Translations under genes and position numbers: made by a program | Virus record (IMG/VR): IMGVR_UViG_3300042875_000419 | DNA length: 64,000 nt | Strand: one strand, 5' to 3' | DNA from: a virus | Taxonomy: Duplodnaviria > Heunggongvirae > Uroviricota > Caudoviricetes | The notes under the pieces: generated by a model | The model's database searches: none | Told to the model about the DNA's origin: nothing | What the model saw: only the letters and a program-made list of their open reading frames with translations | Shown: one piece after another, positions 42,057 to 58,398 of the stretch | How positions within the stretch are numbered: position 1 is the stretch's first letter | Layout: every line of letters starts with the position of its first letter

Positions 42057-42160
42057 AATATATTATAACATAAACCAAGTAGAATGGCAAGTGTTATTTC
42101 ACGTTTGTTGCAAAAAAACAACAGAAAAAGACGCACCAGGAACGTCCTGGAGCGCCTAGG

Positions 42161-42361
42161 TCACTTAATGCTAGCCAGAGTGTCGACCAGTCGATTCCAT
42201 TCACCAGGGTTCAGGAAAAACTCAACCTTAGACTGGATGGCATCAGGAAACTTAGCACCTTGATATTTAATCGAAAGTGTTACATGTTTTAGTTCACGAA
42301 TATCTTCAACATCGAGAAAATATTGATATTGTTGATACTGATCAGAAATTTCATATCTCAT
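42161..42361 (-). CDS. Hypothetical protein (66 aa).
   Basis: ORF. Its stop overlaps the downstream AAA+ gene start. Confidence 0.35.
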   Translation of the reverse strand: MRYEISDQYQQYQYFLDVEDIRELKHVTLSIKYQGAKFPDAIQSKVEFFLNPGEWNRLVDTLASIK

Positions 42362-43587
42362 ATAAACCCCATTTTTCTTTCTACAGGCTTTTTCATGTTT
42401 GTGTTTTGTTCAAAAAACACATCGGCAATGGACCATGATATACGTTCACGATTCAATTTAGTTCCAACTTTTGTTGCCAGCTTTTCAGCTTGTGATTGTG
42501 TCAGTTCTTCAAAGTGTATAATGTCATAGCAACGACCTGGACGAATCAGTGCAGGATCGATATCACGAACAGATGGGAGGTTTGTTGAGAAAATGAGTTT
42601 CTTGTTTCGTGTAGTCACAAGACCATCACCAACGTTTAGAAACTTGTGCATCATTGTGTTACCTTCAGCACGTGCTTTCAAGAACATATCAGCATCTTCG
42701 AGAACGAGAACGTTCTTTTCACCTTCAATAAAGTTGGCGAACACATAATCTTTTTCCAACACGTTTGAATCATAAGACACAATAGCGGATGCTTCAGAGT
42801 GTTGTAGTAGACCACGAATGAATGTAGTCTTACCAGTACCTGGTGGTCCAATCAACAACAGAATAGATGCAGATGAATGCATGAAGTTGTCATAGAATTC
42901 AGCGAGTGTTTGATCTTCAAGAAACGGATACATTTCTTCAACTGGCATACGGTCATGGCGGAGTGGAATCTCAATAGAAGAACCATCAGCGGCATAGATC
43001 CATTCGATTTGGTTCGTTACAAACTCAAAATCATTTTCGAATTGTTTTTCATACTTCTCAACAAATTCATCATCACCCACAAGTTCAACAGATACGTGTG
43101 TAGAGTGAATGTTGAAAAACAAATAAGACAAAGAATCATCATTAAAGAAATATCCGGTTCCATTTTCATATTGAAAACGGCGGAGATCCTGAATTGTGTC
43201 GATGTAATCCAACCATTCTTTTTTGGTCGCATACATGCTCAACCTAGTTTGAAAGGTTTCAAGTTGGCGTTCAGAACGCTCTTTTAAAATTTTGCTTATG
43301 AGCAGGTCCGCAATATCATTTGCACCTAAGAAAATTTCACCGTTATTATCATTCATTTGTATACCTTCATTTTTCCACCACAGTAATCTTTTTGGTGGTG
43401 TTTTGTGACCAATTCTTTTTGCTCTAAATTTAGACATATTGTTGATGCCAGCCCATATAACATGTTTTTTTCTAGTTTTCCTGGAACCACTCCGTGATTC
43501 ACCTCTTCCAATTTCAGCAAGCCATCTATCAATTCTTTTGGATACGGCAGACCTGCTTTTGTTGATTTTAAATCTCCTCCGGCGCAT
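42358..43587 (-). CDS. AAA+ family ATPase (BCS1-like core). N-terminal extent uncertain.
   Basis: Walker A LLLIGPPGTGKTTFIRGLL, Walker B VLVLEDADMFL, sensor region. Basic N-terminus. Confidence 0.6.
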   Translation of the reverse strand: MRRRRFKINKSRSAVSKRIDRWLAEIGRGESRSGSRKTRKKHVIWAGINNMSKFRAKRIGHKTPPKRLLWWKNEGIQMNDNNGEIFLGANDIADLLISKILKERSERQLETFQTRLSMYATKKEWLDYIDTIQDLRRFQYENGTGYFFNDDSLSYLFFNIHSTHVSVELVGDDEFVEKYEKQFENDFEFVTNQIEWIYAADGSSIEIPLRHDRMPVEEMYPFLEDQTLAEFYDNFMHSSASILLLIGPPGTGKTTFIRGLLQHSEASAIVSYDSNVLEKDYVFANFIEGEKNVLVLEDADMFLKARAEGNTMMHKFLNVGDGLVTTRNKKLIFSTNLPSVRDIDPALIRPGRCYDIIHFEELTQSQAEKLATKVGTKLNRERISWSIADVFFEQNTNMKKPVERKMGFI

Positions 43588-43697: not shown

Positions 43698-43889
43698 TTA
43701 AATTCCTTTTGCTCTGTATTCAAAGTTCCAATAAGGACGACCATCCATAGTGTACTCTATGTTACCACGCCTGTCAACAGTTTCAAGCCATCGACAGTCG
43801 TTGTTTGCCACAGTAACAGGAAACCATGCGAACCAATCGTGCCATTGCATTTTACCGGAATAGTCTTTTGGTCCGCATTTGAGTTTCAT
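43698..43889 (-). CDS. Small Trp-rich protein (63 aa), last gene of the SPFH module.
   Basis: ORF. Its start overlaps the SPFH stop (ATGA). Confidence 0.35.
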   Translation of the reverse strand: MKLKCGPKDYSGKMQWHDWFAWFPVTVANNDCRWLETVDRRGNIEYTMDGRPYWNFEYRAKGI

Positions 43890-44701
43890 TATTTACCTAC
43901 GTTCACGTTAGCGCCAGCACCAATCACCAATGTGTTACCCTTAAAGGCGGCGATACCTTGTGCTTGAATCTTAGCGGCTTCAGCAAGGGTCATACGTGTT
44001 TGAGCATCCATGTATTGAATAGCACCAGCATTTGAATTCAAAGCGGCAATACGTTCAGCTTCTTTCTTTGCAGTTTCAACTTCAACAGTCTTTTGTTTGA
44101 ATTCATTCTTTGAACGAACCAAATCGTTAGCCGATGCAACAACAGAATCAGCAGGTACAACGCTACGAATCATAACTTGGCTGATAGTGATGGGACCATC
44201 CAACTTTTCTTCTGCCAAGTTGCGAACGATTTCGTCCTTGATAAAGTTCTCCATGTCGGATCGGGCATCTGCCATGTCCAATGCTTCATACTTTCGAGCG
44301 GCTTTGTAGATAGCATTACGAGCATTTTGCACAACATAATTATACATCACATATGTATCACCCTTGAATTCAGCGTGGAAACTTTTATTCTTAGTGGAGT
44401 ACAATTCAGCAACAGTTTGTGGATTGATGTTGTAAACAACTACAGCATCAAAGTCTTTCATGGTAGAGTTGTCTTTAGCCACTGGAGTCATATTCTCCAA
44501 GACCACGTTCACATCCTTAACGGGGAATGTAAGTACATTACCAATCAAAGTTTGGTTGAAAGAACCTGGAAGCAATTCACCAGATTGAACTTGTTTATCA
44601 AAGCCAACACGAACACCAACCTCACCCGTTTCAATACGGGTACATGCGGCAGTCATAGCAACAGCGGCGGCGATAACAGAAATTTTCAGAAAGCGAGACA
44701 T
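43889..44701 (-). CDS. SPFH/Band-7 (prohibitin/HflK-like) domain protein with signal or lipoprotein-like N-terminus (270 aa).
   Basis: N-terminal hydrophobic segment ending ...AMTAAC. EVGVRVGFDKQVQSGELLPGSFNQTLIGNVLTFPVKD matches the start of the SPFH domain. C-terminal coiled-coil-like region. Confidence 0.55.
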   Translation of the reverse strand: MSRFLKISVIAAAVAMTAACTRIETGEVGVRVGFDKQVQSGELLPGSFNQTLIGNVLTFPVKDVNVVLENMTPVAKDNSTMKDFDAVVVYNINPQTVAELYSTKNKSFHAEFKGDTYVMYNYVVQNARNAIYKAARKYEALDMADARSDMENFIKDEIVRNLAEEKLDGPITISQVMIRSVVPADSVVASANDLVRSKNEFKQKTVEVETAKKEAERIAALNSNAGAIQYMDAQTRMTLAEAAKIQAQGIAAFKGNTLVIGAGANVNVGK

Positions 44702-44710
44702 AATAATCCT

Positions 44711-44887
44711 TTAAAAGAGAACAACAATAGAAGCAAGGAACACAACAGTGATTATAGCACAGACCATGCTATATGCAAATAGTTTTGTTAGAACCCACTT
44801 TTCTTTACCACTTAGTTGGGTGAACACTTTGATTCCGAAAAAGAAAATCAAAAAGACCACAATGAATGCAAAAATAATACGAATCAT
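44711..44887 (-). CDS. Two-TM small membrane peptide (58 aa), not in the ORF track. ATGA overlap with the upstream gene.
   Basis: Hand translation MIRIIFAFIVVFLIFFFGIKVFTQLSGKEKWVLTKLFAYSMVCAIITVVFLASIVVLF. Immediately upstream of the SPFH gene. Confidence 0.4.
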   Translation of the reverse strand: MIRIIFAFIVVFLIFFFGIKVFTQLSGKEKWVLTKLFAYSMVCAIITVVFLASIVVLF

Positions 44888-45495
44888 TTAGGGAAACTCC
44901 ATCCTTTGGCAGTGTATTTTTCAATACGTTTATGTGAAAGTGCAAATGCATTTTTATGCGGATTCTTAATCAATTGTTTGTTTAGAATTGCATTGTATTG
45001 CTTCTTCGAAATGTAAAGTGTGTGGCTTGAAATTTTATACCACGGCATACAATGCACAAAATCAAATGTGCTTCGTGAATCAGCAGTAGCAAGTGTAATC
45101 ACTTGAAGGCCATTTTTAAATGTGGTGGCATTTGCAGTCACCAATTTACCTTCGACCTGCACTTCAACATATTTTTCATCGGCGTCCTGAATAAAATCTT
45201 TATTCATGTCATTGACATATTGTTTGAAGAACATTATGTCATTTTTGTCCTGTAGATACAAATCATAGTCTTTAGGTGGTTCATCATGCATGAGTGAAGA
45301 AATTGCACCACCCGTGAGAATTGCTTTGTCACGTAGAAAGCCACTCAATTCACTTGGAAGTCCAGAAAACAATAAATTTAATTTTGCAAACAAAACCTTT
45401 TTGATATGATTCATGTGGTCTATATCAATATCTTTATATGTGAAATTGATATCGGTATATGGGTCAATACCCCAATTAGGAGTATTGATTGCCAT
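44884..45495 (-). CDS. Minimal nucleotidyltransferase-fold protein (203 aa).
   Basis: LTGGAISS-x13-DYDLYL fits the G[GS]-x(9-13)-DxD pol-beta-type NTase signature. Confidence 0.4.
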   Translation of the reverse strand: MAINTPNWGIDPYTDINFTYKDIDIDHMNHIKKVLFAKLNLLFSGLPSELSGFLRDKAILTGGAISSLMHDEPPKDYDLYLQDKNDIMFFKQYVNDMNKDFIQDADEKYVEVQVEGKLVTANATTFKNGLQVITLATADSRSTFDFVHCMPWYKISSHTLYISKKQYNAILNKQLIKNPHKNAFALSHKRIEKYTAKGWSFPK

Positions 45496-45875
45496 TACAC
45501 AGTCTCAGCAACTTGTTCGGTTACTTGTACGGCAACTTGTGCGGTTTTAGTTTTACCGATATAACGACCTTCAGGAGAGAATTCGTCAAAGTTTACCAAC
45601 TGATATGCAGTCACTTTTCGACCATCTTTGTAAACACGGACAATTCCACCATCTTTGCGGATGTTGTAGATGTTTGTGGAGAGGCGATAGAGAACACCTT
45701 CTTGGTCACTGCCTTTGAAGCAAGCCTCAATCTCAGCGGGAGAGACAGGCTTGCCAGAGAGCATAACGCAAGCAATTTTTTCGTGACGGTTGATTTTAGT
45801 GGTAGTACGCATAATATATCCTTTGAGAAAAAGTTTACCAGATTCAATTGTAACAGAGTGACAGTCTGGTGGCAA
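45495..45875 (-). CDS. Hypothetical protein (126 aa), translationally coupled (TAATG) to the NTase gene.
   Basis: ORF only. Confidence 0.4.
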   Translation of the reverse strand: MPPDCHSVTIESGKLFLKGYIMRTTTKINRHEKIACVMLSGKPVSPAEIEACFKGSDQEGVLYRLSTNIYNIRKDGGIVRVYKDGRKVTAYQLVNFDEFSPEGRYIGKTKTAQVAVQVTEQVAETV

Positions 45876-45901: not shown

Positions 45902-47065
45902 TTAGAATGGCACTTCATCATCAGGTGAGGTCGGCATCACAGGTGCAGTGTTTGCCTCCGCCACTTTGATATCAACTTTCGAGTACAGGTCAAGGAACGA
46001 ATCTTTGGTTTCTTGGTCAAAACGATTCACACAGAGTTGAATTGCCTTCGAACGGTCTTTGAAGATTGAATAAGTCTTTGCAATGTGTACCAAACGGCGA
46101 GTGGAGACAATCTCATCAACACCACCTTCGGCGAATGTTTTACGAATAACGTCAGCCCACTTCACAAGGTTCTCGGCAAACTCATCATCATTCAACAATG
46201 GTTTGAGAATCTTGAGTTCAACCTTGGCTTCAGGATATTCCTGTTCAACGGTGATGTTGAAACGCTCAAGGAACGCATCATCAAGAATCTGTGACAGGTA
46301 ACGACCCTCTTCAGAGCCACGGCCTTTGGTGTTAGCAGTTGCAACAACGTTGAAGCCACGTTTTGGATAGATGTATTCACCAGACTTTTTGTTGAAGTAA
46401 GGTTTGCCTTCAAGAATACCTTGAAGGCACATCAGTTTGTTTGAACCACGGTCAACTTCGTCAATCAAGAGAATTGCACCACGTTTCATGGCAGTCATCA
46501 CAGGACCATCACGGTACACCACGTTACCATCGATAAGTGTTGGACCACCAATCAGGTCAGATTCATCAGTCTCAACGGAGATGTTCACACGGATACATTC
46601 ACGTTTGAGTGTGGCACACACTTGTTCAACCATGAGTGTCTTACCATTACCAGACATACCAGTAATGAACACAGGGAAGAATTCCTGTGAGAGTACAATG
46701 GAGGTCAGGTCTTTGTAGAAACCAAAGGGGACATAGCCTTGGTATTTTTCAGGGATAGAAGTATCTGCATGGTCTTCAAGTTTCTTTTGACGGAGAACAT
46801 GGACAGTGGCAGTTTGTGTCAATTCGACAACGGCAGGTTCTTCAACTGCAACATCACATGACACGGCGTTTGGTGCATTAGGAAGAAGGTATTGGCCACG
46901 ACCAGAACGAAACTCTTGGCGAGTGACAAACCAGAAGGGATAAGGAACAGACCGTTCATCAACGACACGTTGAATTTGGTCACGGCTCAAAATTGCATTC
47001 TCACCGAAAATCTCAGATGCGGCTTGGACGAATGCTTTTGCATTACGATTCATAAAGTTCTCCAT
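45902..47065 (-). CDS. cobS: CobS-like / MoxR-type AAA+ ATPase (387 aa).
   Basis: Walker A ITGMSGNGKTLMVEQVC, Walker B ILLIDEVDRG, and a MoxR/CobS-like arrangement. A common gene of T4-like cyanophages and pelagiphages. Confidence 0.6.
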   Translation of the reverse strand: MENFMNRNAKAFVQAASEIFGENAILSRDQIQRVVDERSVPYPFWFVTRQEFRSGRGQYLLPNAPNAVSCDVAVEEPAVVELTQTATVHVLRQKKLEDHADTSIPEKYQGYVPFGFYKDLTSIVLSQEFFPVFITGMSGNGKTLMVEQVCATLKRECIRVNISVETDESDLIGGPTLIDGNVVYRDGPVMTAMKRGAILLIDEVDRGSNKLMCLQGILEGKPYFNKKSGEYIYPKRGFNVVATANTKGRGSEEGRYLSQILDDAFLERFNITVEQEYPEAKVELKILKPLLNDDEFAENLVKWADVIRKTFAEGGVDEIVSTRRLVHIAKTYSIFKDRSKAIQLCVNRFDQETKDSFLDLYSKVDIKVAEANTAPVMPTSPDDEVPF

Positions 47066-47079
47066 AACAAGGTGTTTCT

Positions 47080-47108
47080 ATTATATCACAGTTTTTGCCA
47101 GATGGCAA
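47080..47108 (-). promoter_or_regulatory. Sigma70-type promoter TTGCCA-N17-TATAAT driving cobS (minus strand).
   Basis: Reverse complement reads TTGCCATCTGGCAAAAACTGTGATATAAT, about 15 nt upstream of RBS GGAGAAC and the ATG at 47065. Confidence 0.55.
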
Positions 47109-47493: not shown

Positions 47494-47558
47494 CTCTATT
47501 ATACCAGAAACCAAAAAAAAGGCAACCATAAAGATTGCCTTTGTTGTTTTGGTACAAC
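47494..47558 (-). repeat. Terminator-promoter cassette, left copy. A hairpin (aaaggcaa/ttgccttt stem) is flanked by A and T runs. On the minus strand the 3' half of the stem (TTGCCT) serves as the -35, with a 16-nt T-rich spacer and a TATAAT -10.
   Basis: ctctattataccagaaaccaaaaaaaaggcaaccataaagattgcctttgttgttttggtacaaca. About 85% identical to the copy at 48968-49036. Confidence 0.6.
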
Positions 47559-47560
47559 AC

Positions 47561-48946
47561 TTAGACCAGAACTTCTCCGAGTGTCATTTTACTACCTTTT
47601 TTAAGATTGGCAGACTTCGCAACCAATTGGCAGTTATTTGTACCATCGGTACCTTTGGATGGACCACCAAAGGTGTGTGGAACAATGTGGTCTGCCGCCC
47701 ATTTTTCATGGTCGTTAATTTCCTCCTCTGGAATATGTTCACCAGTTATTGGACATACACCAGCTTGGCGTGCCCATGCTTCATACCTTTGTTGTGGTGT
47801 GAAAAGGCGTTCAGAGTCCCGTTGTGCTACGATACCGCTTTCAATAATTTCAAAGTCTTCCATAATGGCTTTATAACGTGCCGTTAATTCTAACTTTGAC
47901 ATTGTATTGCAACATGATGCATATGTACGGAGTTCACCTGATTTTGGAGATTCTACCAGAATCTTTTTACTTCCAAGGCGGCGATTCTCTGTACGCATAA
48001 ACCATTGAAATAGTTTTGCGTCATCGATAATACCAAAATTGTTTTTACGGAGATAATCAATCACCATATAGAAATTCAACATTGTCGAATGGTCTTTAAA
48101 TCCAGTTGTTGCATGTTTCTTGACAATCTTGCACATCGAATCAATACTAGAACTTGCATTCTTAGTTTGTTTTGATACAACAGAATCATCTTCATATGCA
48201 TTATCTTTATCAGATTTTGCAACACCATGTTCAGCACCAAAAGAAGAATAGATGGCAAGACCAACAACAAAATCGTCAATCAATCGGCGCTTCTCTTGTT
48301 TTTCCGTGGTAAATACTTTACGGAATTCATTCTTATGTTTCTTTACAGTGTCACGCACCCAACCAGCAAATGGCACCAAACGTGCATTACGTAATTCTTG
48401 TGCATTCAGTGAAACACCATCATTCACGTTAATGAAAATATTGGACAAATCATTACGTGTGGCAGAAACATACTCAGCAACAGTAATCTCGACACTACTT
48501 TCAATAAAATCTAAAAGAATTTTTGGATGCTTTTTGTATGTGTCATTCTTATCATTGATATCAACGACACCATTGGGCAATGGATATTGACCATGCTTTA
48601 ATTTAACAGAACCATTCAGATATTGGTCGATTGTGATAGTACGGTTATTTCCGTCAATGGAAATCCATTCAAAACCTTTTTGAAGCCAATCATTGTAGTA
48701 TTCATAATCTTTTGATTCTACCATGCATTTGTCCATACACTCTTTGATATTAGCAACAACAATTTTTGATGGTGCCATACCAGTAATAAGTGAGGTCATA
48801 TATGCTGTGGCTTGTTTTTCTTCCCATCGACTTTCAGATTGAAAAGATGTATCAAGAGCAACTCTTTCCCTAAAATACCGCATATTGGTGGAAATAAGTT
48901 TCATTGTACGATTCAACGCTACTGTTACACTATGTTGTTTTGCCAT
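47561..48946 (-). CDS. DUF262 (ParB-like nuclease, DGQQR-type) plus C-terminal HNH/DUF1524 His-Me finger: GmrSD-like nuclease. Start taken at Met 48946.
   Basis: N-terminal ISIDGNNRTITI (DGQQR-like). C-terminal DHIVPHTFGGPSKGTDGTNNCQLVAKSANLKKGSK (H-N-H). The track ORF start at 49000 would overlap the right repeat, so the internal MAKQ start is preferred. Confidence 0.65.
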   Translation of the reverse strand: MAKQHSVTVALNRTMKLISTNMRYFRERVALDTSFQSESRWEEKQATAYMTSLITGMAPSKIVVANIKECMDKCMVESKDYEYYNDWLQKGFEWISIDGNNRTITIDQYLNGSVKLKHGQYPLPNGVVDINDKNDTYKKHPKILLDFIESSVEITVAEYVSATRNDLSNIFINVNDGVSLNAQELRNARLVPFAGWVRDTVKKHKNEFRKVFTTEKQEKRRLIDDFVVGLAIYSSFGAEHGVAKSDKDNAYEDDSVVSKQTKNASSSIDSMCKIVKKHATTGFKDHSTMLNFYMVIDYLRKNNFGIIDDAKLFQWFMRTENRRLGSKKILVESPKSGELRTYASCCNTMSKLELTARYKAIMEDFEIIESGIVAQRDSERLFTPQQRYEAWARQAGVCPITGEHIPEEEINDHEKWAADHIVPHTFGGPSKGTDGTNNCQLVAKSANLKKGSKMTLGEVLV

Positions 48947-48967
48947 TTTAGGTCCAATTATTGAAAA

Positions 48968-49036
48968 CTCTATTATATACCATATATAAAAAAAAGGCAA
49001 CCATAAAGATTGCCTTTTGTTGTTTTTTTACAACAT
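48968..49036 (-). repeat. Terminator-promoter cassette, right copy. Same hairpin; -35 TTGCCT, 17-nt spacer, TATAAT. Drives the DUF262-HNH gene.
   Basis: ctctattatataccatatataaaaaaaaggcaaccataaagattgccttttgttgtttttttacaaca. Confidence 0.6.
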
Positions 49037-53849: not shown

Positions 53850-54039
53850 TCCGAATCCATTCGATGGTGTATCCGTTCAGTGCATAGTTATCAGCCATAG
53901 CCTGGAGACGGCGGAGGGCTTGTTCAGCATTCAGACCCATGCTTGCCATTAGGCTCAGGTTGCTCCAGTGAGCAAAGTTATTGGAGTCCTTATGTGCGGA
54001 GACTTGAATGAATTGTTTGGGTGTGTTTGTTTGTGTCAT
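53797..54039 (-). CDS. Hypothetical protein (80 aa). First gene downstream of the DnaA-box/promoter region.
   Basis: ATG at 54039 lies 7 nt downstream of the TATAAT at 54047-54052. Confidence 0.4.
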   Translation of the reverse strand: MTQTNTPKQFIQVSAHKDSNNFAHWSNLSLMASMGLNAEQALRRLQAMADNYALNGYTIEWIRNDFDSFDEEMYGDLFNV

Positions 54040-54046
54040 GGATGGT

Positions 54047-54074
54047 ATTATAGCGGTACTGGTAGGAATGGCAA
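54047..54074 (-). promoter_or_regulatory. Sigma70-type promoter module copy (TTGCCA-N16-TATAAT, minus strand) with the DnaA-box array 45-90 bp upstream.
   Basis: Reverse complement reads TTGCCATTCCTACCAGTACCGCTATAATACCATCCATG. Confidence 0.55.
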
Positions 54075-54118
54075 TGGAATATTTTGCGGAAAACTTCGTC
54101 TGTTGTATAAAAGAGACT

Positions 54119-54161
54119 GTGGATAAGTGTGTGGATAAGTTGTGGATAAGTTGTGGATATC
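54119..54161. promoter_or_regulatory. Array of four co-oriented DnaA boxes with 11-12 bp phasing. Three are perfect TGTGGATAA (i.e. TTATCCACA); the fourth is TGTGGATAT.
   Basis: ctgTGTGGATAAgtgTGTGGATAAgtTGTGGATAAgtTGTGGATATc, read directly from the sequence. Confidence 0.6.
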
Positions 54162-54485
54162 TTTGAGGACCTTAATAACTGACCAGTCAGTCAGTAGGTC
54201 GCTGGATGTGTCGCGGTGTGTCGGAAGTGTTGGGTTGCTATTTAGTCTTAGTTGCTGGCTGCCAACGCCTGAAAATTTCACAGAGTGTCTCAGAGGTGAC
54301 AGCACGTTTCCGCACGTTCCAATGGGTTCCAGTGGGTTCCAGCACGGTTTGGAATGTTTTGCTCTGTGTGGGTCTCAGAATGTCTCAGAGTGGTGCTGGA
54401 TGCCCATTGGAAAACCATCAGGCAGCCTCTACGTCCACCCCCAGTCTTGCTGTTCGAACCAATGGATCCATTGTACTCTAAAAAA

Positions 54486-54518
54486 GACCACCTGGCAACC
54501 ACCAGGTGTCTCATCTAC
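54486..54518 (-). terminator. Rho-independent terminator (7-bp stem cacctgg/ccaggtg, loop caacca, T-run on the minus strand) ending the minus early operon of the GC-rich island.
   Basis: aaaaaagaccacctggcaaccaccaggtg, 7 nt downstream of the stop at 54525. Confidence 0.6.
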
Positions 54519-54524
54519 GCAACA

Positions 54525-54746
54525 TCACTCCTCTTCGGAGAATCCTTCAATCAGCACTATTTGGTCCTCATAATAGTTCCGTTCCTCCTCCATGCACAGG
54601 TTGCCCTCGACCTCGAACACCAGGTCCGTGGCTGTCTTTTCGTCACATCCAGTGGAGGTCATAACGAATTGAATAATGTCCTCAAACGTATCACCATTGG
54701 TGATGCACGATTCGATATCGATAATCAAGTCTTTAAATTTGCTCAT
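54525..54746 (-). CDS. Small acidic protein (73 aa).
   Basis: ORF in the GC-rich island. Confidence 0.4.
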   Translation of the reverse strand: MSKFKDLIIDIESCITNGDTFEDIIQFVMTSTGCDEKTATDLVFEVEGNLCMEEERNYYEDQIVLIEGFSEEE

Positions 54747-54870
54747 TAGTCGCTTTCATTTTGTGTGTGGTGCGGGCGGTGAATGTAATATCAGGAATTT
54801 TATGCTCTCTCCGAGCCAACCAATTCACCATATACTTCCAACCAAATGCTTGAGTGTTTGTCATAATCAT
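54733..54870 (-). CDS. Small protein (45 aa) with AAAGGA RBS. The track ORF start at 54930 was rejected.
   Basis: ctataAAGGAatgattATG. The longer ORF overlaps the ATPase gene. Confidence 0.3.
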   Translation of the reverse strand: MIMTNTQAFGWKYMVNWLARREHKIPDITFTARTTHKMKATNEQI

Positions 54871-54886
54871 TCCTTTATAGTAAAAA

Positions 54887-55768
54887 TCAACCGCAGATGG
54901 TGTATTCTGCAAGGTCTTTCCACTTGGCACCAGCAGACTTGCGGATTTTAGTGGTCTGGATGAGTGTACGGAGTGACAACTCTTTCACCTCATCTTGGAG
55001 GTTGTCAATCAGGTCCAGTGCATCGGACTTTTCTGTCTTCGAATACTCAGGCATAAACTCTGGGAGGGACACCAGGTGGCGCATACGCTCCACTTTTTGC
55101 TCCGTTGTCATTGTCAGGTCAACAGCCATCGAACGGGTGATGATGGCTTGGTCCATCGAATCAGAGGACAGGTTAGAGATAAACACCACCCGGCCTTTGA
55201 ATTCAAAGGATTGTGGGAGTTCGTCATCCTTCATGTCGGCACGCCATGAGATGACACGGCGGGAGTAGGAGTCCAGAGCACCTTTGAGCAGGTTCAGAGA
55301 CACTGGATCCTTCAGCACCGAGTCGCAGTCGTCAAAAACAACCACGCCGTCCTTGTTTTCATACAGTGTACGGTACAGGCCCTTTGGAGTGGAGTAGCCC
55401 TTGATAACACGGTAGGACTTGGTGGTGTTGATTTTGCCACCGACCTCGAATTCATCCAGGAGGGTGACATCCTTCATGCCGGCATCATTCAGTGCCTTGG
55501 TGACGGTATGGGACTTGCCGAGACCACCGGGACCAGATACAACCACCGAGGACTGGTCACCTTTCACCAACATGGCGACCATGTCGGAGACAAAGCCGAA
55601 CCGCTGGTTGATGGTGAAGCGGGACTCCTTGACATTGACAGGAGCACCACCGGTGGCACCTGTAGCCTTGCGGATCACATAGTCCATGTGTTCCTTTTTG
55701 GCACGCTTGACCACCTTGCCATTGATGTTGGCAACGTATTTACCACCGACAAACTTCACTTCAATCAT
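54887..55768 (-). CDS. P-loop NTPase (AAA+/RecA-like core, 294 aa from Met 55768), possibly replication-associated.
   Basis: Walker A VVVSGPGGLGKSHTV, Walker B VVVFDDCD, sensor-like VVFISNL. The true start is inferred because promoter copy 55838-55866 lies inside the longer track ORF. RBS GAAAGGAAAA. Confidence 0.5.
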   Translation of the reverse strand: MIEVKFVGGKYVANINGKVVKRAKKEHMDYVIRKATGATGGAPVNVKESRFTINQRFGFVSDMVAMLVKGDQSSVVVSGPGGLGKSHTVTKALNDAGMKDVTLLDEFEVGGKINTTKSYRVIKGYSTPKGLYRTLYENKDGVVVFDDCDSVLKDPVSLNLLKGALDSYSRRVISWRADMKDDELPQSFEFKGRVVFISNLSSDSMDQAIITRSMAVDLTMTTEQKVERMRHLVSLPEFMPEYSKTEKSDALDLIDNLQDEVKELSLRTLIQTTKIRKSAGAKWKDLAEYTICG

Positions 55769-55837
55769 AATTTTCCTTTCAATTGCAATACCATGTTGAA
55801 AAACACCACCGGGAGAGGTGCTTTTGAATATGGTATC

Positions 55838-55866
55838 GATTATACCAGAACCAGCAGGTTCTGGCA
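55838..55866 (-). promoter_or_regulatory. Sigma70-type promoter module copy (TTGCCA-N17-TATAAT, minus).
   Basis: Reverse complement reads TTGCCAGAACCTGCTGGTTCTGGTATAAT, adjacent to CCGGTCAAGTATTGG. Confidence 0.55.
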
Positions 55867-55887
55867 ACCAATACTTGACCGGACAGG

Positions 55888-56175
55888 TCAACAATCAGCA
55901 TCAAAATCCGCCCACTCTTGGGCTTCGTCCGGCTGACCGTCATCCTCATCCTCGGTCTCCATCTCATCCTCGGTGAGACCTTCCACGAAAACGTCTTCCT
56001 CGGTCAAGGAATCCACGTAGTCGTTAAAACCGCACCGATAGGCTACCGGGTCGACCTCACGCAGGACCTCGGAAGCGGAATAGGTCATTCCGCACAGTTC
56101 CACCGGACCTTCACAGTCGTCCAGCATCTCATCAAACCATGCATGGGCGGTGCGCTCAGATATTAAACGGGACAT
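55888..56175 (-). CDS. Early protein with a strongly acidic C-terminal tail (95 aa).
   Basis: C-terminus EDEMETEDEDDGQPDEAQEWADFDADC. Promoter copy immediately upstream. Confidence 0.45.
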   Translation of the reverse strand: MSRLISERTAHAWFDEMLDDCEGPVELCGMTYSASEVLREVDPVAYRCGFNDYVDSLTEEDVFVEGLTEDEMETEDEDDGQPDEAQEWADFDADC

Positions 56176-56207
56176 TTTCTTTCCTTTTCTTTCACAATAT
56201 GGATTGG

Positions 56208-56235
56208 ATTATACAGGTTCCGGTAGTATTGTCAA
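56208..56235 (-). promoter_or_regulatory. Sigma70 consensus promoter copy (TTGACA-N16-TATAAT, minus).
   Basis: Reverse complement reads TTGACAATACTACCGGAACCTGTATAAT, preceded by CCGGTCAAGTATTGG. Confidence 0.6.
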
Positions 56236-56255
56236 CCAATACTTGACCGGAATGG

Positions 56256-56468
56256 TCAACTATCAAATTCGCAGGACTGGTCCAGGTACAGGCTCAGTTC
56301 CTCGGCTTGGTTCAGGATTCGAGCCACTTCCATGGCCTCATCCTCACATTGGAACCGTTCTACGGACTCGCCAGTGTGGACACCGTTGGACAATGGGGAC
56401 CAGCGGATCACATGGAAGTCCATGGTTTTGTCGTGGTGTTCTACAGTGTAGGTTTTTGTGTTCATCAT
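56256..56468 (-). CDS. Small protein (71 aa from the MM start).
   Basis: ATG 7 nt downstream of the -10 of promoter copy 56475-56502. Confidence 0.35.
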   Translation of the reverse strand: MMNTKTYTVEHHDKTMDFHVIRWSPLSNGVHTGESVERFQCEDEAMEVARILNQAEELSLYLDQSCEFDS

Positions 56469-56474
56469 GTCTTG

Positions 56475-56502
56475 GATTCTACAGGTTCCAGCAGGTTTGG
56501 CA
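56475..56502 (-). promoter_or_regulatory. Promoter module copy (TTGCCA-N16-TAGAAT, minus).
   Basis: Reverse complement reads TTGCCAAACCTGCTGGAACCTGTAGAAT. Confidence 0.45.
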
Positions 56503-56596
56503 ACCATTTTGGATATACTTGACCGGAGTGCTGGGTTATTATTATGACGCCCAGCCTCCACGTCCACCCCGCCTTCCGCTTCGAATCATGGTACCA

Positions 56597-56624
56597 ATTA
56601 TACCAGAACCAGCAGGGAAGGCAA
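56597..56624 (-). promoter_or_regulatory. Promoter module copy (TTGCCT-N16-TATAAT, minus), tandem with the previous copy.
   Basis: Reverse complement reads TTGCCTTCCCTGCTGGTTCTGGTATAAT. Confidence 0.45.
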
Positions 56625-56630
56625 GAGATA

Positions 56631-56655
56631 ACCCAGCCCGTTGCTGGGTTATTAG
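56631..56655 (-). terminator. Hairpin aacccagc-ccgtt-gctgggtt directly after the stop of the acidic protein gene. Putative terminator.
   Basis: 8-bp inverted repeat seen in the sequence. Weak U-tract. Confidence 0.35.
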
Positions 56656-56656
56656 A

Positions 56657-56893
56657 TTAGAACGAATCGATTATTTCCTGAATATCGTCAAAATTCTCAG
56701 AAATAAGAGAACTTTCGTATTCATCGTCTTCTTCATTGTAATCATAATATATCTCGAAGACCGGGGTTTCTAATACTTCTTCATCAATTGGGTGAACATA
56801 GTGTTCAATATAGTATGCAACCTGAACATTGTCAGAATTGAATACAGAATACTCATTACATTCCACACTTGAATACGTTTGTACTACTTTCAT
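56657..56893 (-). CDS. Highly acidic small protein (78 aa).
   Basis: D/E/Y-rich (EEVLETPVFEIYYDYNEEDDEYESSLISENFDDIQEIIDSF). Confidence 0.45.
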   Translation of the reverse strand: MKVVQTYSSVECNEYSVFNSDNVQVAYYIEHYVHPIDEEVLETPVFEIYYDYNEEDDEYESSLISENFDDIQEIIDSF

Positions 56894-56924
56894 TTTTCAC
56901 TTTCGTTTCGTTTACAATGATGTT

Positions 56925-56952
56925 ATTATATCATAGCAGGCCAGAATGGCAA
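56925..56952 (-). promoter_or_regulatory. Promoter module copy (TTGCCA-N16-TATAAT, minus) for the acidic protein gene.
   Basis: Reverse complement reads TTGCCATTCTGGCCTGCTATGATATAAT. Confidence 0.5.
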
Positions 56953-56992
56953 TATAGCACAATAGTTCTCCATTCTTCCGGTCAACTATTGG

Positions 56993-57020
56993 TTGCCATT
57001 CTCGCTGGTTCTGGTACAAT
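56993..57020 (+). promoter_or_regulatory. Promoter module copy (TTGCCA-N16-TACAAT, plus), first of four plus-strand copies. Divergent from copy 56925-56952.
   Basis: CCGGTCAACTATTGG-TTGCCATTCTCGCTGGTTCTGGTACAAT-CCATTCCATG. Confidence 0.55.
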
Positions 57021-57027
57021 CCATTCC

Positions 57028-57228
57028 ATGATAAAATCAATTCAACCAACCGACCGCAAGGTCCAAGCCCAATACCTGCTGGACGGTGTATTGGTTACCA
57101 TTTGCAAGCCTGCCCGCCCCCGTAGGTCGGAACGGACTTGGTCGGCTGGTGCCAAGTATTCGGTCGCCAACCTTGGAGCCAAGGCTGCCACCCTTCGGAA
57201 TGTTGGTCTCTCCCATGCCAAAGGTTGA
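57028..57228 (+). CDS. Small basic protein (66 aa). Its ATG is 7 nt downstream of the -10, so the mRNA may be leaderless.
   Basis: Internal Met of track ORF 56869..57228. Fits exactly between promoter copies. Confidence 0.35.
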   Translation: MIKSIQPTDRKVQAQYLLDGVLVTICKPARPRRSERTWSAGAKYSVANLGAKAATLRNVGLSHAKG

Positions 57229-57256
57229 CCAATCCGGTCAAGTATCCAAAGGATGG

Positions 57257-57284
57257 TTGCCATTCTCGCTGGTTCTGGTACAAT
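57257..57284 (+). promoter_or_regulatory. Promoter module copy (TTGCCA-N16-TACAAT, plus).
   Basis: CCGGTCAAGTATCC...TTGCCATTCTCGCTGGTTCTGGTACAAT-CCATTCCATA. Confidence 0.55.
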
Positions 57285-57315
57285 CCATTCCATAGTAAAT
57301 TGAAAAGGTTGCAAA

Positions 57316-57558
57316 ATGTACCAGCCCCATATAGTCCTCCGGCACTGCCGCTCCTACCTCCGGAAAGCCCGTGGCGGATTCTACGCCGAGGTGTACCATG
57401 GTCAAGAGGCTATTTTCCAGGTGTATGCCGATGGAACGGTGCTTTGGTTGCATCCTTCCCAAGGCTTGGTCCGACCTGAAAATGTAATGGGTGGGCGGCT
57501 CCTCTCCCATGTACGGTACCAAGGTCGGTCCCTCCTGCGGTATCATGGCGTACAATAA
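57316..57558 (+). CDS. Small basic protein (80 aa).
   Basis: ORF downstream of the promoter copy, with leader containing aaaagg. Confidence 0.35.
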   Translation: MYQPHIVLRHCRSYLRKARGGFYAEVYHGQEAIFQVYADGTVLWLHPSQGLVRPENVMGGRLLSHVRYQGRSLLRYHGVQ

Positions 57559-57590
57559 CCCAGCCAGCCGGTCAACTATTCCACGGATGG

Positions 57591-57618
57591 TTGCCATTTC
57601 CTCTGGTTCTGGTATAAT
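57591..57618 (+). promoter_or_regulatory. Promoter module copy (TTGCCA-N16-TATAAT, plus).
   Basis: CCGGTCAACTATTCC...TTGCCATTTCCTCTGGTTCTGGTATAAT. Confidence 0.55.
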
Positions 57619-57648
57619 CCAACCATCAAATCAAGCAAAGGTCAAAAA

Positions 57649-58398
57649 ATGAATTTACTCTCCACTGGTAACCCTAAGGTCCTCAAAGGCCTGGCTCAGG
57701 GTTACAATACCTACATCCTGCACCTCGCTCCAGCCGACCTGTCCGGTTTTGAGACCTGCGCCAAACGGACCAAAGGTTGCACGGCTGCCTGCCTGAACCT
57801 TGCTGGCCGTGGCGGTATGTTCAAAAAAGGTGAAACCACCAACATTATCCAGCAGGCTCGAATCCGCAAAACCCAAATGTTTTTCGAGGCTCGCACCGGT
57901 TTTATGGAATGGCTGGTCAAGGATATTGAATTGGCTATTAAACAATCGGCTAAAATCAATATGGTTCCAGTGATTCGCCTTAATGGCACTTCGGACCTAG
58001 CCTTTGAAAAGTATGCCGCCATCCGTAATGGCGTGGAATATAAAAACATTTTCATGGCATTCCCTGAAATTCAATTCTACGATTATACCAAGATTCTCGG
58101 ACGTAAAATTGCCGATTATCCCAATTATCACCTGACATTCTCAGCCGCCGATGGTAATGATTCGGACGTTGAAAAGGCTATTGCCCAAGGTTATAATGTA
58201 GCCGTGGTGTTTGGTATTAAAAAGACCCTCCCAATGCCGGCTGATTATCTGAGTATGCCAGTATTTAATGGCGATGAGTCGGACCTCCGTTTTCTGGATC
58301 CAAAAGGCTCCGTTATCGGCTTATATGCCAAAGGCAAAGCCAAAAAAGATACCACTGGTTTTGTAAAGTATCCCGCCATTATGATGGCATCCGTTTAA
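57649..58398 (+). CDS. Three-Cys-motif protein (249 aa). Possibly the phage Gp37/Gp68 (DUF5131) family.
   Basis: N-terminal cluster TCAKRTKGCTAAC (C-x6-C-x3-C). The family assignment is from memory and is not verified. Confidence 0.35.
   Translation: MNLLSTGNPKVLKGLAQGYNTYILHLAPADLSGFETCAKRTKGCTAACLNLAGRGGMFKKGETTNIIQQARIRKTQMFFEARTGFMEWLVKDIELAIKQSAKINMVPVIRLNGTSDLAFEKYAAIRNGVEYKNIFMAFPEIQFYDYTKILGRKIADYPNYHLTFSAADGNDSDVEKAIAQGYNVAVVFGIKKTLPMPADYLSMPVFNGDESDLRFLDPKGSVIGLYAKGKAKKDTTGFVKYPAIMMASV

Follow-up and report, generated by a model that had tools for sequence, protein, structure and literature searches.

The stretch of DNA analysed here (the window; 64,000 nt, IMG/VR record IMGVR_UViG_3300042875_000419) belongs to a T4-like phage. 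Five ORFs, all on the minus strand, are present between positions 43,698 and 45,875, as described in the initial annotation, which had also correctly recognised their phage context. These are a 126-aa ORF as first called (45495–45875, with a TTG start at 45875), a 203-aa nucleotidyltransferase (NTase) ORF (44884–45495), tm58, a 58-aa ORF encoding a hairpin peptide with two transmembrane (TM) segments (44711–44887), the gene for its partner, an SPFH/Band 7 lipoprotein of 270 aa (43889–44701), and a 63-aa Trp-rich ORF, W63 (43698–43889). The TAATG junction at 45495 and the ATGA overlap of the NTase ORF and tm58 (44884–44887) were confirmed, but the junction at 43889, previously read as ATGA, is TAATG with a 1-nt overlap, and the end of tm58 is separated from the SPFH start by a 9-nt spacer. 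Overlapping or abutting junctions were observed in 28 out of 75 co-directional gene pairs of the 64-kb window, and gaps of 15 nt or less in 46 out of 75. Since junctions are tight across the whole window, close packing is no evidence of functional linkage. When the region was compared with 50,697 phage records by megablast, one short cobS match and nothing else was returned, thus no close isolate is present among them. PADLOC and NCBIfam scans of all genes gave no match for the five.

The best candidate promoter is a sigma-70-type site (TTGCCA-N17-TGnTATAAT; 47080..47108, minus strand) upstream of cobS, which matches 11 of the 12 consensus positions and is conserved in 11 related loci. A second promoter-like site (TTGCCA, 17 nt, TG-extended TACAAT; 45847..45875, minus strand) is located between cobS and the next gene of the region. 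The total number of sigma-70-like sites in the region was not above that in shuffled sequences, and so the best promoter-like sites alone are suggestive. The first terminator-like hairpin downstream (42136..42150, minus strand) follows an AAA+ gene (42358–43587) and a 66-aa ORF, and none was found before position 42150. Given the conserved site at 47108–47080 and the lack of an earlier hairpin, the suggestion that the genes are co-transcribed from a promoter 5' of cobS is plausible, and this site is likely to be the start of the transcription unit that contains the tm58–SPFH cassette. The T4 late promoter motif TATAAATA occurs twice in the window, no more than expected by chance, and neither copy is near the region. 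The pair is predicted to be expressed early in infection.

The 126-aa ORF is probably 105 aa long (45495..45812, minus strand), because ATG 45812 is preceded at 8 nt by an AAGGA ribosome-binding site and the corresponding Met is the start in relatives. The TTG at 45875, in turn, is the −35 element of the second promoter-like site. The 105-aa protein has no family or PDB match, and its gene, which lies outside the unit proposed below, is confined to the closest relatives. For the W63 product, no family match and only spurious PDB matches were obtained; it has a 39%-identical homologue in Rhizobium phage 16-3, and its gene directly abuts the NTase gene in relatives without the cassette. Both are unrelated backbone genes.

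The 203-aa protein had been read as a pol-beta-type NTase, and the fold assignment, a head domain, was upheld. The motif is GG-x12-DYD (G62 G63 … D76 Y77 D78) rather than GG-x13-DYD and conforms to the class hG[GS]-x9-13-DhD; residues G62, G63, D76, D78 and D145 are invariant, of which D145 would be the third carboxylate. The ORF is an in-frame 273-nt deletion fusion of a 109-aa and a 187-aa gene, which are separate in a 99%-identical contig; the ~23 initial codons of the 109-aa gene, which lies upstream, are joined to the NTase (junction near 45421–45426). In fold, size and GG…DxD motif the NTase resembles phage stand-alone "Poly A polymerase head domain"/tRNA nucleotidyltransferase-like proteins and PDB 2la3. 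Its core of ~180 aa lacks the neck, body and tail domains of CCA-adding and poly(A) polymerases, and the window ORF does not match Pfam PolyA_pol, to which the relative P0001 scores 18.4 bits, below the cut-off of 23. NTase homologues carry the precomputed family PF26128; PDB searches with the NTase profile, as with the tm58 profile, gave spurious matches only. The protein is a stand-alone class II CCA-adding/poly(A)-polymerase-type head domain and probably acts on RNA 3' ends. A CD-NTase/CBASS assignment was considered and rejected, as neither a cGAS/DncV-like fold nor a conserved cyclase–effector gene pair was found.

The SPFH domain proposed for the 270-aa protein was confirmed by a match to Pfam Band_7 (PF01145; residues 22–215; E-value, 3.4 × 10−15; 57.0 bits against a gathering cut-off of 23.6) covering profile positions 2–176 of 176. 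The protein consists of a signal peptide with lipobox (MSRFLKISVIAAAVAMTAAC; 44642..44701, minus strand), the SPFH domain (residues ~22–183), a long helix (185–251) and a hydrophobic C-terminal tail, i.e., an alpha/beta SPFH fold followed by a long coiled-coil helix. The predicted fold resembles those of prohibitin and HflK/C, with a moderate pLDDT of 76.7 and the C-terminal 20 residues unmodelled. The lipoprotein-like N-terminus was also borne out: the lipobox reads AMTAAC, with Cys20 at least 90% conserved in alignment A2 and Thr at position +2. The mature protein is thus predicted to be lipid-modified at Cys20, exported and periplasm-facing. Among 102 full-length family representatives, at least 81 have a lipobox, and about 17% have a TM anchor; Asp at position +2 was found in one of the 81 lipobox members, most of which have Thr, Gly or Ser.

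The SPFH protein falls into PHROG family phrog_200 (E-value, 1.5 × 10−30), and a tblastn search with it gave matches in 177 phage records. It belongs to the same family as the phage SPFH/Band 7 lipoproteins Vi01_108c, CBA120 orf126, 44RR ORF098c, Aeh1 ORF064c and RB43 ORF139c; the window protein is only 27% identical to the Vi01 protein. Homologues from Bdellovibrio and Bacteriovorax are 66–71% identical to the phage protein. No NCBIfam family was found at E ≤ 0.01, and a PDB sequence search produced spurious matches only. Proteins of this kind have been annotated in phages since 2006 (PMC1524935, PMC3220722, PMC10892097), and their function was still called unclear in 2026 (PMC13239085); our literature searches turned up no paper in which a phage SPFH protein had been studied functionally. 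An HflK/C-like protein from a Pasteurella prophage, detected in outer-membrane vesicles (PMC9872710), is a possible family lead at most.

The two-TM ORF upstream, pointed out in the initial annotation, proved to be a genuine conserved gene. Its 52 distinct homologues are each exactly 58 codons long and contain no indels, with K35 and F58, the C-terminal Phe, invariant, and V55 and Y39 conserved in 98% and 96% of them, respectively. The central loop is basic and contains the motif GKE.W.LTK; net charges are +2.4 for the loop, +0.9 for the N-terminus and 0 for the C-terminus. The peptide is predicted to form an inner-membrane hairpin with a cytoplasmic loop and both termini in the periplasm. No match for tm58 was found in Pfam, PHROG, PADLOC or PDB, and the window ORF has no Pfam match at E ≤ 0.1; one relative gave a sub-threshold match to the SPP1 holin family (E-value, 0.058).

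The synteny survey revealed that tm58 and the SPFH lipoprotein form a conserved pair, which is carried by many phages unrelated to one another and by some bacteria. In 66 of 79 viral (IMG/VR) loci, tm58, as defined by BLAST cluster, lies directly 5' of the SPFH gene. Of the remaining 13 loci, the nine that were inspected have either divergent two-TM ORFs of 53–58 aa, or an extended ORF containing tm58, some of these upstream ORFs starting with TTG; the four loci outside this inspection were L014, L022, L023 and L046, and tm58 matches are known at three of them. The genes flanking the pair occur in more than 25 arrangements, with every other neighbour present in 22 loci or fewer, and in about 75 other viral loci the pair is present but the NTase, the 126-aa ORF and the Trp-rich ORF are not. 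A single SPFH gene was found in the window and at all of the loci inspected. The two genes are 9 nt apart or overlap, and each has a separate ribosome-binding site. As a side observation, a 28-aa TM micro-ORF sits between tm58 and the SPFH gene in about half of the loci.

The same arrangement, a small two-TM ORF followed by an SPFH lipoprotein gene, was found in Synechococcus phage BUCT-ZZ01, Acinetobacter phage nACB1, Salmonella phage Vi01, Burkholderia phage BCSR5, Agrobacterium phage OLIVR5, two further Acinetobacter-phage contigs and Erwinia phage phiEa2809, where the 64-aa upstream ORF is unannotated. It thus recurs in Kyanoviridae, Ackermannviridae, Schitoviridae, Pootjesviridae, a jumbo Burkholderia phage and Burkholderiales chromosomes. 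The tm58 HMM matches the BCSR5 peptide (E-value, 1 × 10−4; best shuffle, 11 bits) and the Burkholderiales chromosomal peptides (E-values from 2 × 10−9 to 7 × 10−4). Its scores on the Vi01, phiEa2809, nACB1, OLIVR5 and BUCT-ZZ01 peptides were no better than those on shuffles, and these partners may be analogues rather than tm58 homologues. In cells, the SPFH homologues are found outside prophages: the Burkholderiales pairs are in housekeeping contexts (aspS; hemW/cheB), and Bdellovibrio chromosomes carry single genes. Because homologous pairs are located in such housekeeping regions, the pair appears to have been exchanged between phage and host genomes.

The pair is independent of the NTase gene and of its other neighbours. 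Both of its genes are absent from L085, L087 and L088, in which cobS is 96–97% and W63 95–98% identical to those of the window, and the NTase stop overlaps the W63 start. In L086 (cobS 93% and W63 61% identical), the pair is also absent, and a different 50-aa ORF occupies the slot. In relatives with ~48%-identical cobS, the pair adjoins gp45/gp44-like genes, and neither the NTase nor W63 is present. A search for flanking repeats that could account for cassette mobility found just short, unconvincing TAAAT(A)ATGA-type similarity at the junctions.

The presence of the partner is anti-correlated with a TM anchor in the SPFH protein. In a tally of SPFH homologues, 14 combine a lipobox with the partner, eight have a lipobox alone, seven have a TM anchor alone, and none has both a TM anchor and the partner (Fisher p = 0.006 on examples and about 0.05, borderline, on lineages). 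The clearest case is offered by sister N4-like phages: nACB1 encodes the hairpin and a lipobox SPFH protein; in its sister contigs, with 77–79% identical SPFH proteins and the same upstream intergenic region, the SPFH protein has an uncleaved TM anchor and the hairpin gene is absent. The eight partnerless lipoprotein homologues (from Acinetobacter phage AM24, contig L116, Bdellovibrio, Bacteriovorax and Leptospiraceae) indicate that the hairpin is not obligatory. Divergence of the two proteins is weakly correlated (mirror-tree Mantel r, 0.13; 49 of 2000 permutations), and, the correlation being weak, it was not counted as support for co-evolution. Evolution of tm58 is about three times faster than that of the SPFH protein (mean distance, 0.56 vs. 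0.17).

SPFH proteins such as prohibitin, stomatin, flotillin and HflK/C form membrane cages, the contents and purpose of which are debated. HflK and HflC are a bacterial SPFH pair that cages the FtsH protease, with an N-terminal TM anchor and a periplasmic SPFH domain. The locus described here differs from them in having one SPFH gene instead of a heteromeric paralogous pair, and its product has no match to a curated HflK/HflC model (NCBIfam, E ≤ 0.01). The phage protein is also shorter (270 aa), is accompanied by a 58-aa hairpin peptide, and is predicted to reach the periplasm by means of a cleaved signal peptide and a lipid anchor at Cys20, not a TM helix. QmcA and YqiK face the cytoplasm, whereas the SPFH protein of the window is predicted to be exported. 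In SPFH–NfeD operons (QmcA–YbbJ, YqiK–YqiJ, PH1511–PH1510; PMC2636767; PDB 8z5g), as here, a membrane-protein gene adjoins the SPFH gene; for tm58 this adjacency is conserved. The expectation in the initial annotation that the SPFH gene would be paired with a small membrane partner was right, and the pairing is the strongest result of the analysis, but the partner does not resemble NfeD. With a length of 58 aa, it consists of just two TM helices and a loop with no NfeD OB-fold domain, and has no Pfam match; the Pfam matches listed for 25 tm58 relatives at E ≤ 1 do not include NfeD (PF01957), and the PDB profile search with tm58 does not find YbbJ. The SPFH family is already annotated; the hairpin partner is the new element, of which no report was found, and the papers searched neither discuss the hairpin gene that precedes the SPFH gene nor connect the two.

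On balance, we slightly favour the reading that the functional unit is a two-gene accessory cassette, comprising a periplasm-facing SPFH scaffold and the hairpin, and not a set of five genes. The SPFH protein has the architecture of cage-forming SPFH proteins, in which the domain is followed by a ~67-residue wall helix and a hydrophobic strand at the C-terminus. Judging from this architecture, the lipoprotein would assemble as an oligomeric ring or dome at the periplasmic surface of the membrane, oriented like HflK/C, and the hairpin, presumably in contact with it in the inner membrane, would provide the membrane span for which HflK/C-type proteins have an N-terminal TM helix of their own. The two together may enclose or stabilise an area of the host envelope from an early stage of infection, and the pair may move among phage genomes as a promoterless two-gene block. 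Counting against this model, the enterobacterial +2 rule would send most family members, with Thr, Gly or Ser at this position, to the outer membrane, and the SPFH protein would then be apart from an inner-membrane hairpin. As to the role of the pair, envelope/membrane-protein homeostasis of the infected cell, possibly via FtsH-like clients, is a tentative guess; superinfection exclusion is an unlikely one, and a role in lysis timing is improbable.

The initial annotation had joined the five genes into a translationally coupled module; on this model, a nucleotide signal made by the NTase would act on an SPFH/TM effector for defence, exclusion or anti-defence. The genes are co-directional, tightly packed and probably co-transcribed, and the G-G…DxD…D motif set of the NTase is intact. 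The packing, however, is the genome-wide norm, there are no PADLOC matches, and the NTase, whose ORF in the window is a deletion fusion, is not a cGAS-like signalling enzyme. The initial annotation had named lack of synteny in related phages as refuting the module, and the gene order is indeed shared with the closest relatives alone: the hairpin and SPFH genes are missing from near-identical phages that retain the NTase, and present elsewhere without the other three genes, which makes such a module hardly tenable. It is also quite unlikely that tm58 and the SPFH gene are no more than neighbours inherited together, i.e., independent accessory membrane genes with no physical or functional coupling. 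The weak co-divergence, the lipoprotein homologues that function without a partner, and the abundance of small TM ORFs in phage early regions, including the 28-aa micro-ORF, agree with such independence. Against it stand the adjacency kept across more than 25 flanking contexts, several phage families and bacterial chromosomes, the loss of the partner in precisely those cases in which the SPFH protein acquires a TM anchor of its own, and the tight spacing of two genes that each have a ribosome-binding site.

If the genes do act together, a pair made early could change the envelope and thereby keep later phages from delivering their DNA, a logic comparable with that of T4 Imm and Sp and of the lipoproteins Llp of T5 and Cor. 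This would suit an envelope-located two-protein set that sits among predicted early genes, is widespread in virulent phages of diderm hosts, and is accessory, being present or absent between near-identical phages; moreover, in Vi01 and phiEa2809, genes annotated as "superinfection exclusion" (unverified annotations) are two to three genes away. We consider entry blocking unlikely all the same, as the Burkholderiales pairs in housekeeping contexts and the single genes of Bdellovibrio argue for a general membrane function, and no similarity to known exclusion proteins was found. A holin- or pinholin-like pore former, the triggering of which is regulated by the SPFH lipoprotein so as to time lysis, appears very unlikely. 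The two-TM peptide is of holin-like size, one tm58 relative has the sub-threshold SPP1-holin match mentioned above, and the Vi01 pair comes after a gene annotated as endolysin, but this "endolysin" is 102 aa long and appears from its sequence to be a LysM domain that lacks a catalytic one. Furthermore, no recognisable endolysin or spanin gene adjoins the pair in the window or in the related loci examined, which are mostly unannotated, the pair is dispensable in close relatives, its expression is predicted to be early, and cellular homologues exist outside prophages. Holin identity was rejected for the window peptide, which has no PHROG or Pfam holin match and no conserved adjacency to lysis genes; a spanin reading was likewise considered and rejected, since no recognisable spanin is found beside the pair in the loci examined.

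For T4-like early regions, these results mean that tight gene packing should not be taken to indicate a functional module, and the NTase-signalling module, a misleading lead, is now removed. More speculatively, and against the probabilities, the two-gene cassette could be a "split" SPFH envelope-holding device, with a separate TM fence and a periplasmic cage subunit, shared by phages and periplasmic predators. If so, it would be a system common to virulent phages of at least five families and to the periplasmic predators Bdellovibrio and Bacteriovorax, not a housekeeping scaffold, and it would stabilise or compartmentalise the inner membrane or periplasm of the victim until the invader is ready. 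Phage SPFH lipoproteins have been annotated for 20 years; they are now joined by a length-invariant 58-aa partner dedicated to the phage SPFH protein, in a cassette that crosses phage families and extends into bacterial chromosomes, and this pairing gives a testable minimal two-part model of a periplasmic SPFH system.

The window belongs to a T4-like myovirus; baseplate wedge proteins are present, the mean GC content is about 0.38, and no close isolate was found in the phage collection searched. A collagen-repeat ORF on the plus strand (192–1169; Pfam Collagen, E-value 5 × 10−23) explains the high GC at the window start, and a second GC-rich stretch (0.48) at 54–58 kb (54000–58000) includes a GP88-family ORF (57649–58398). 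The region under study lies on the minus strand, where a cobS-like AAA+ gene (45902–47065; AAA_5, E-value 4 × 10−19; phrog_249) is followed by five ORFs, placed by the ORF listing at 45495–45875 (126 aa), 44884–45495 (203 aa, nucleotidyltransferase, NTase), 44711–44887 (58 aa, two-TM hairpin peptide, tm58), 43889–44701 (270 aa, SPFH lipoprotein) and 43698–43889 (63 aa, Trp-rich, W63). A 110-nt gap separates W63 from the gene of a 409-aa AAA+ ATPase (42358–43587, minus strand; phrog_14322; Pfam AAA, E-value 3 × 10−12), which is kept downstream in all close relatives. W63 has a full-length homologue, 39% identical, in p077 of Rhizobium phage 16-3; the RefSeq name of the latter, 'Sak4-like ssDNA annealing protein', looks mis-transferred, since the protein is so small.

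In the initial annotation, the five ORFs were taken for one translationally coupled module, in which the NTase might signal to an SPFH/TM membrane effector. The junctions are TAATG at 45495, ATGA at 44884–44887 and a 9-nt spacer ahead of the 270-aa SPFH gene; the tight junction proposed at 43889 is also there, but its sequence is TAATG, not ATGA. Such packing is not evidence of a module, because tight junctions are the rule in the window: of the 75 neighbouring ORF pairs that share a direction, 28 have overlapping or abutting ends, and the distance is at most 15 nt in 46.

For comparison of gene order, 80 IMG/VR loci fetched via the SPFH protein and eight fetched via the NTase were searched with all of the window proteins. 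All five genes were found together only in the closest relatives (L004–L006, L016 and L018). In three loci with cobS 96–97% identical to that of the window (L085, L087 and L088), both the tm58 and the SPFH genes are absent, and the NTase stop overlaps the W63 start in the same ATGA-type junction. Both genes are also absent in L086 (cobS 93% identical), where a different 50-aa ORF fills the slot. The position between the NTase stop and the W63 start is a variable slot, empty in three relatives, filled by the 50-aa ORF in another and by tm58 and SPFH (43889–44887) in the window. Relatives whose cobS is about 48% identical have the pair beside sliding-clamp and clamp-loader genes, and neither NTase nor W63 is present. 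Thus, as the pair is missing next to near-identical cobS genes and elsewhere occurs without NTase and W63, the five-gene signalling module was rejected, in line with the synteny criterion set in the initial annotation. The pairing of the SPFH gene with a small membrane partner, also foreseen in the initial annotation, was borne out: in BLAST clustering of all ORFs, the tm58 gene was the immediate upstream neighbour of SPFH in 66 of 79 loci. Nine of the remaining 13 loci were inspected and contain divergent 53–58-aa two-TM ORFs or an extended ORF that includes tm58, several of them with TTG starts. In the same cluster analysis, the other neighbours of the pair each occur in at most 22 loci, and its flanks show more than 25 different arrangements. 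A two-gene unit of tm58 and SPFH emerges strongly from this synteny comparison.

The start of the 126-aa ORF is most probably ATG 45812, which would give a product of 105 aa; an AAGGA ribosome-binding site precedes this codon, and relatives begin at the corresponding Met. A promoter-like site, TTGCCA-N17-TG-TACAAT, has the TTG at 45875 as its −35 element. A TTGCCA-N17-TG-TATAAT site upstream of cobS is kept in 11 relatives, the TACAAT site just described is a second one, ahead of the 105-aa gene, and the first terminator-like hairpin downstream of the gene array is found at 42150–42136. No T4-type late promoter was found near the region. Elsewhere, whichever gene comes before the hairpin gene usually abuts it, so the two-gene cassette appears to be promoterless. 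We infer early co-transcription, from the promoter upstream of cobS.

An exact 30-nt repeat, AAAAAAAAGGCAACCATAAAGATTGCCTTT, occurs in two copies (47513–47542 and 48988–49017) and forms, on the minus strand, a terminator-like hairpin overlapping a promoter-like site, TTGCCT-N16/17-TATAAT. The copies bracket the gene at 47561–49000 and resemble the promoter/stem-loop elements that delimit shuffled cassettes in T4-type phages. The bracketed gene (minus strand) encodes a 479-aa protein with a GmrSD_N/DUF262-like N-terminus and a C-terminal HNH nuclease (PADLOC NsnA, E-value 1 × 10−12; NCBIfam Cas9 HNH-region, E-value 2.5 × 10−8), apparently a phage-encoded homologue of a type IV restriction or defence nuclease.

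Judged by sequence comparison, the 203-aa ORF is a fusion of two genes. In L004, an IMG/VR contig 97–100% identical across the region, separate genes of 109 aa and 187 aa are present, and 273 nt (L004 3009–3281) are missing in frame from the window, with the junction at about 45421–45426. The deletion, which is either natural or an artefact of assembly, takes out most of the 109-aa gene and joins its first ~23 codons to the 187-aa NTase gene; in agreement with the fusion, residues 1–17 of the NTase structure model have pLDDT values below 50. A Pfam search with the window ORF gave no match, and PHROG matches were to families of unknown function only. In an alignment of 32 homologues, G62, G63, S67, D76, D78, D145, H148, C149, R190 and K193 are invariant. 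The proposed NTase fold holds up: in the viral structure library, the matches include many phage proteins of 170–220 aa that bear the name 'Poly A polymerase head domain' or 'tRNA nucleotidyltransferase'. Because of the class of these matches, RNA 3′-end chemistry is indicated rather than cyclic-nucleotide signalling.

All of the 52 distinct tm58 homologues are exactly 58 residues long, without a single indel. K35 and F58 are invariant, followed by V55 (98%), Y39 and I19 (96% each), L33 (92%) and T34 (89%). On these alignments, tm58 is a real, constrained gene. The loop between its hydrophobic segments has a net charge of +2.4, so that the loop is predicted to be cytoplasmic and the termini periplasmic. 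No match to tm58 was found in Pfam, PHROG, PADLOC or PDB, and an NfeD-like identity was rejected by the Pfam and PDB searches. A 28-aa single-TM micro-ORF with the conserved pattern M..D..LRPLYF.LGF..CF.LF..GVI lies between the hairpin and SPFH genes of roughly half the related loci (L008, L020, L035 and about 35 others), where it occupies the 87 nt directly upstream of the SPFH start; it is missing from the window.

The SPFH protein matches the Band_7 profile over its whole length (E-value, 3.4 × 10−15) and phrog_200, 'lipoprotein' (E-value, 1.5 × 10−30). At its N-terminus, MSRFLKISVIAAAVAMTAAC, it has a signal peptide and lipobox. The lipobox Cys is at least 90% conserved in the alignment and occurs in no fewer than 81 of the 102 full-length representatives of the family; the remainder have an uncleaved TM anchor. 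The structure model (pLDDT 76.7) consists of an SPFH domain followed by a single 67-residue helix, with the hydrophobic tail unmodelled. In metagenomes, the family comprises more than 5000 90%-clusters; at 50% identity, a compact set of 710 representatives remains, nearly all of them 258–300 aa long. The family itself is already known by annotation; the presence of the SPFH gene in phages is still called unclear in a 2026 paper (PMC13239085), and no functional study of any phage SPFH protein was found in the literature searched.

Directly ahead of an SPFH lipoprotein gene, a small two-TM ORF is present in Synechococcus phage BUCT-ZZ01 (58 aa), Acinetobacter phage nACB1 (85 aa), Salmonella phage Vi01 (69 aa), Agrobacterium phage OLIVR5 (83 aa) and two further Acinetobacter-phage contigs. 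Such an ORF also stands before this gene in Erwinia phage phiEa2809 (64 aa, unannotated in that genome) and, with a tRNA gene in between, in Burkholderia jumbo phage BCSR5 (65 aa). The partner is missing in two exceptions, Acinetobacter phage AM24 and contig L116. The tm58 HMM matches the BCSR5 peptide (19 bits vs. 11 bits for the best shuffle); those of BUCT-ZZ01, nACB1, Vi01, phiEa2809 and OLIVR5 were not recognised and have the architecture alone in common.

Fifteen bacterial loci were obtained when one genome of each species was scanned. The lipoprotein gene of Burkholderiales (Parvibium, Inhella and several MAGs) follows that of a 60-aa hairpin (tm58 HMM E-values, 2 × 10−9 to 7 × 10−4) and stands in housekeeping contexts, with aspS or with hemW and cheB. 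Bdellovibrio and Bacteriovorax have lipoprotein homologues without a partner; these are located in non-phage contexts, on the chromosomes of Bdellovibrio sp. HCB290 and HCB288 (L099, L100) and in Bacteriovorax MAGs (L098, L101). Their identity to the phage SPFH protein, 66–71%, suggests that phages and predatory bacteria have exchanged the gene recently. Giesbergeria and Simplicispira have TM-anchored SPFH homologues and no partner. In Acinetobacter shaoyimingii (CP049801.1, locus 6001–6834), a lone TM-anchored homologue lies beside a CRISPR array and Csy-type cas genes.

Among the examples inspected, a lipobox occurs with the partner in 14 and alone in eight, whereas a TM anchor occurs alone in seven and with the partner in none (Fisher p = 0.006 on examples, about 0.05 on rough lineages). 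The clearest case is that of N4-like Acinetobacter phages: nACB1 has a hairpin gene and a lipobox SPFH protein, whereas contigs with SPFH proteins 77–79% identical to that of nACB1 share the upstream gene and the conserved intergenic region, lack the hairpin gene, and encode SPFH with an uncleaved TM anchor. Mainly because partner and TM anchor are complementary, the hairpin may supply the membrane-spanning element for a lipid-anchored SPFH assembly. The SPFH ring or cage would face the periplasm, held by its lipid anchors and associated with the inner-membrane hairpin. Against this mechanism, proteins with these +2 residues (Thr, Gly, Ser) would be sorted to the outer membrane in enterobacteria, several SPFH lipoproteins have no partner, and the co-divergence of tm58 and SPFH is weak.

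As to function, the pair would be an accessory made early, which organises or stabilises part of the envelope. A general membrane role is more likely than a dedicated function in superinfection exclusion or in lysis, because the bacterial contexts of the pair are housekeeping. In the literature searched, neither the hairpin partner nor the cassette behaviour nor the complementarity of lipobox and TM anchor appears to have been reported, and the tm58–SPFH pair can be regarded as a variant form of the SPFH-plus-partner theme.
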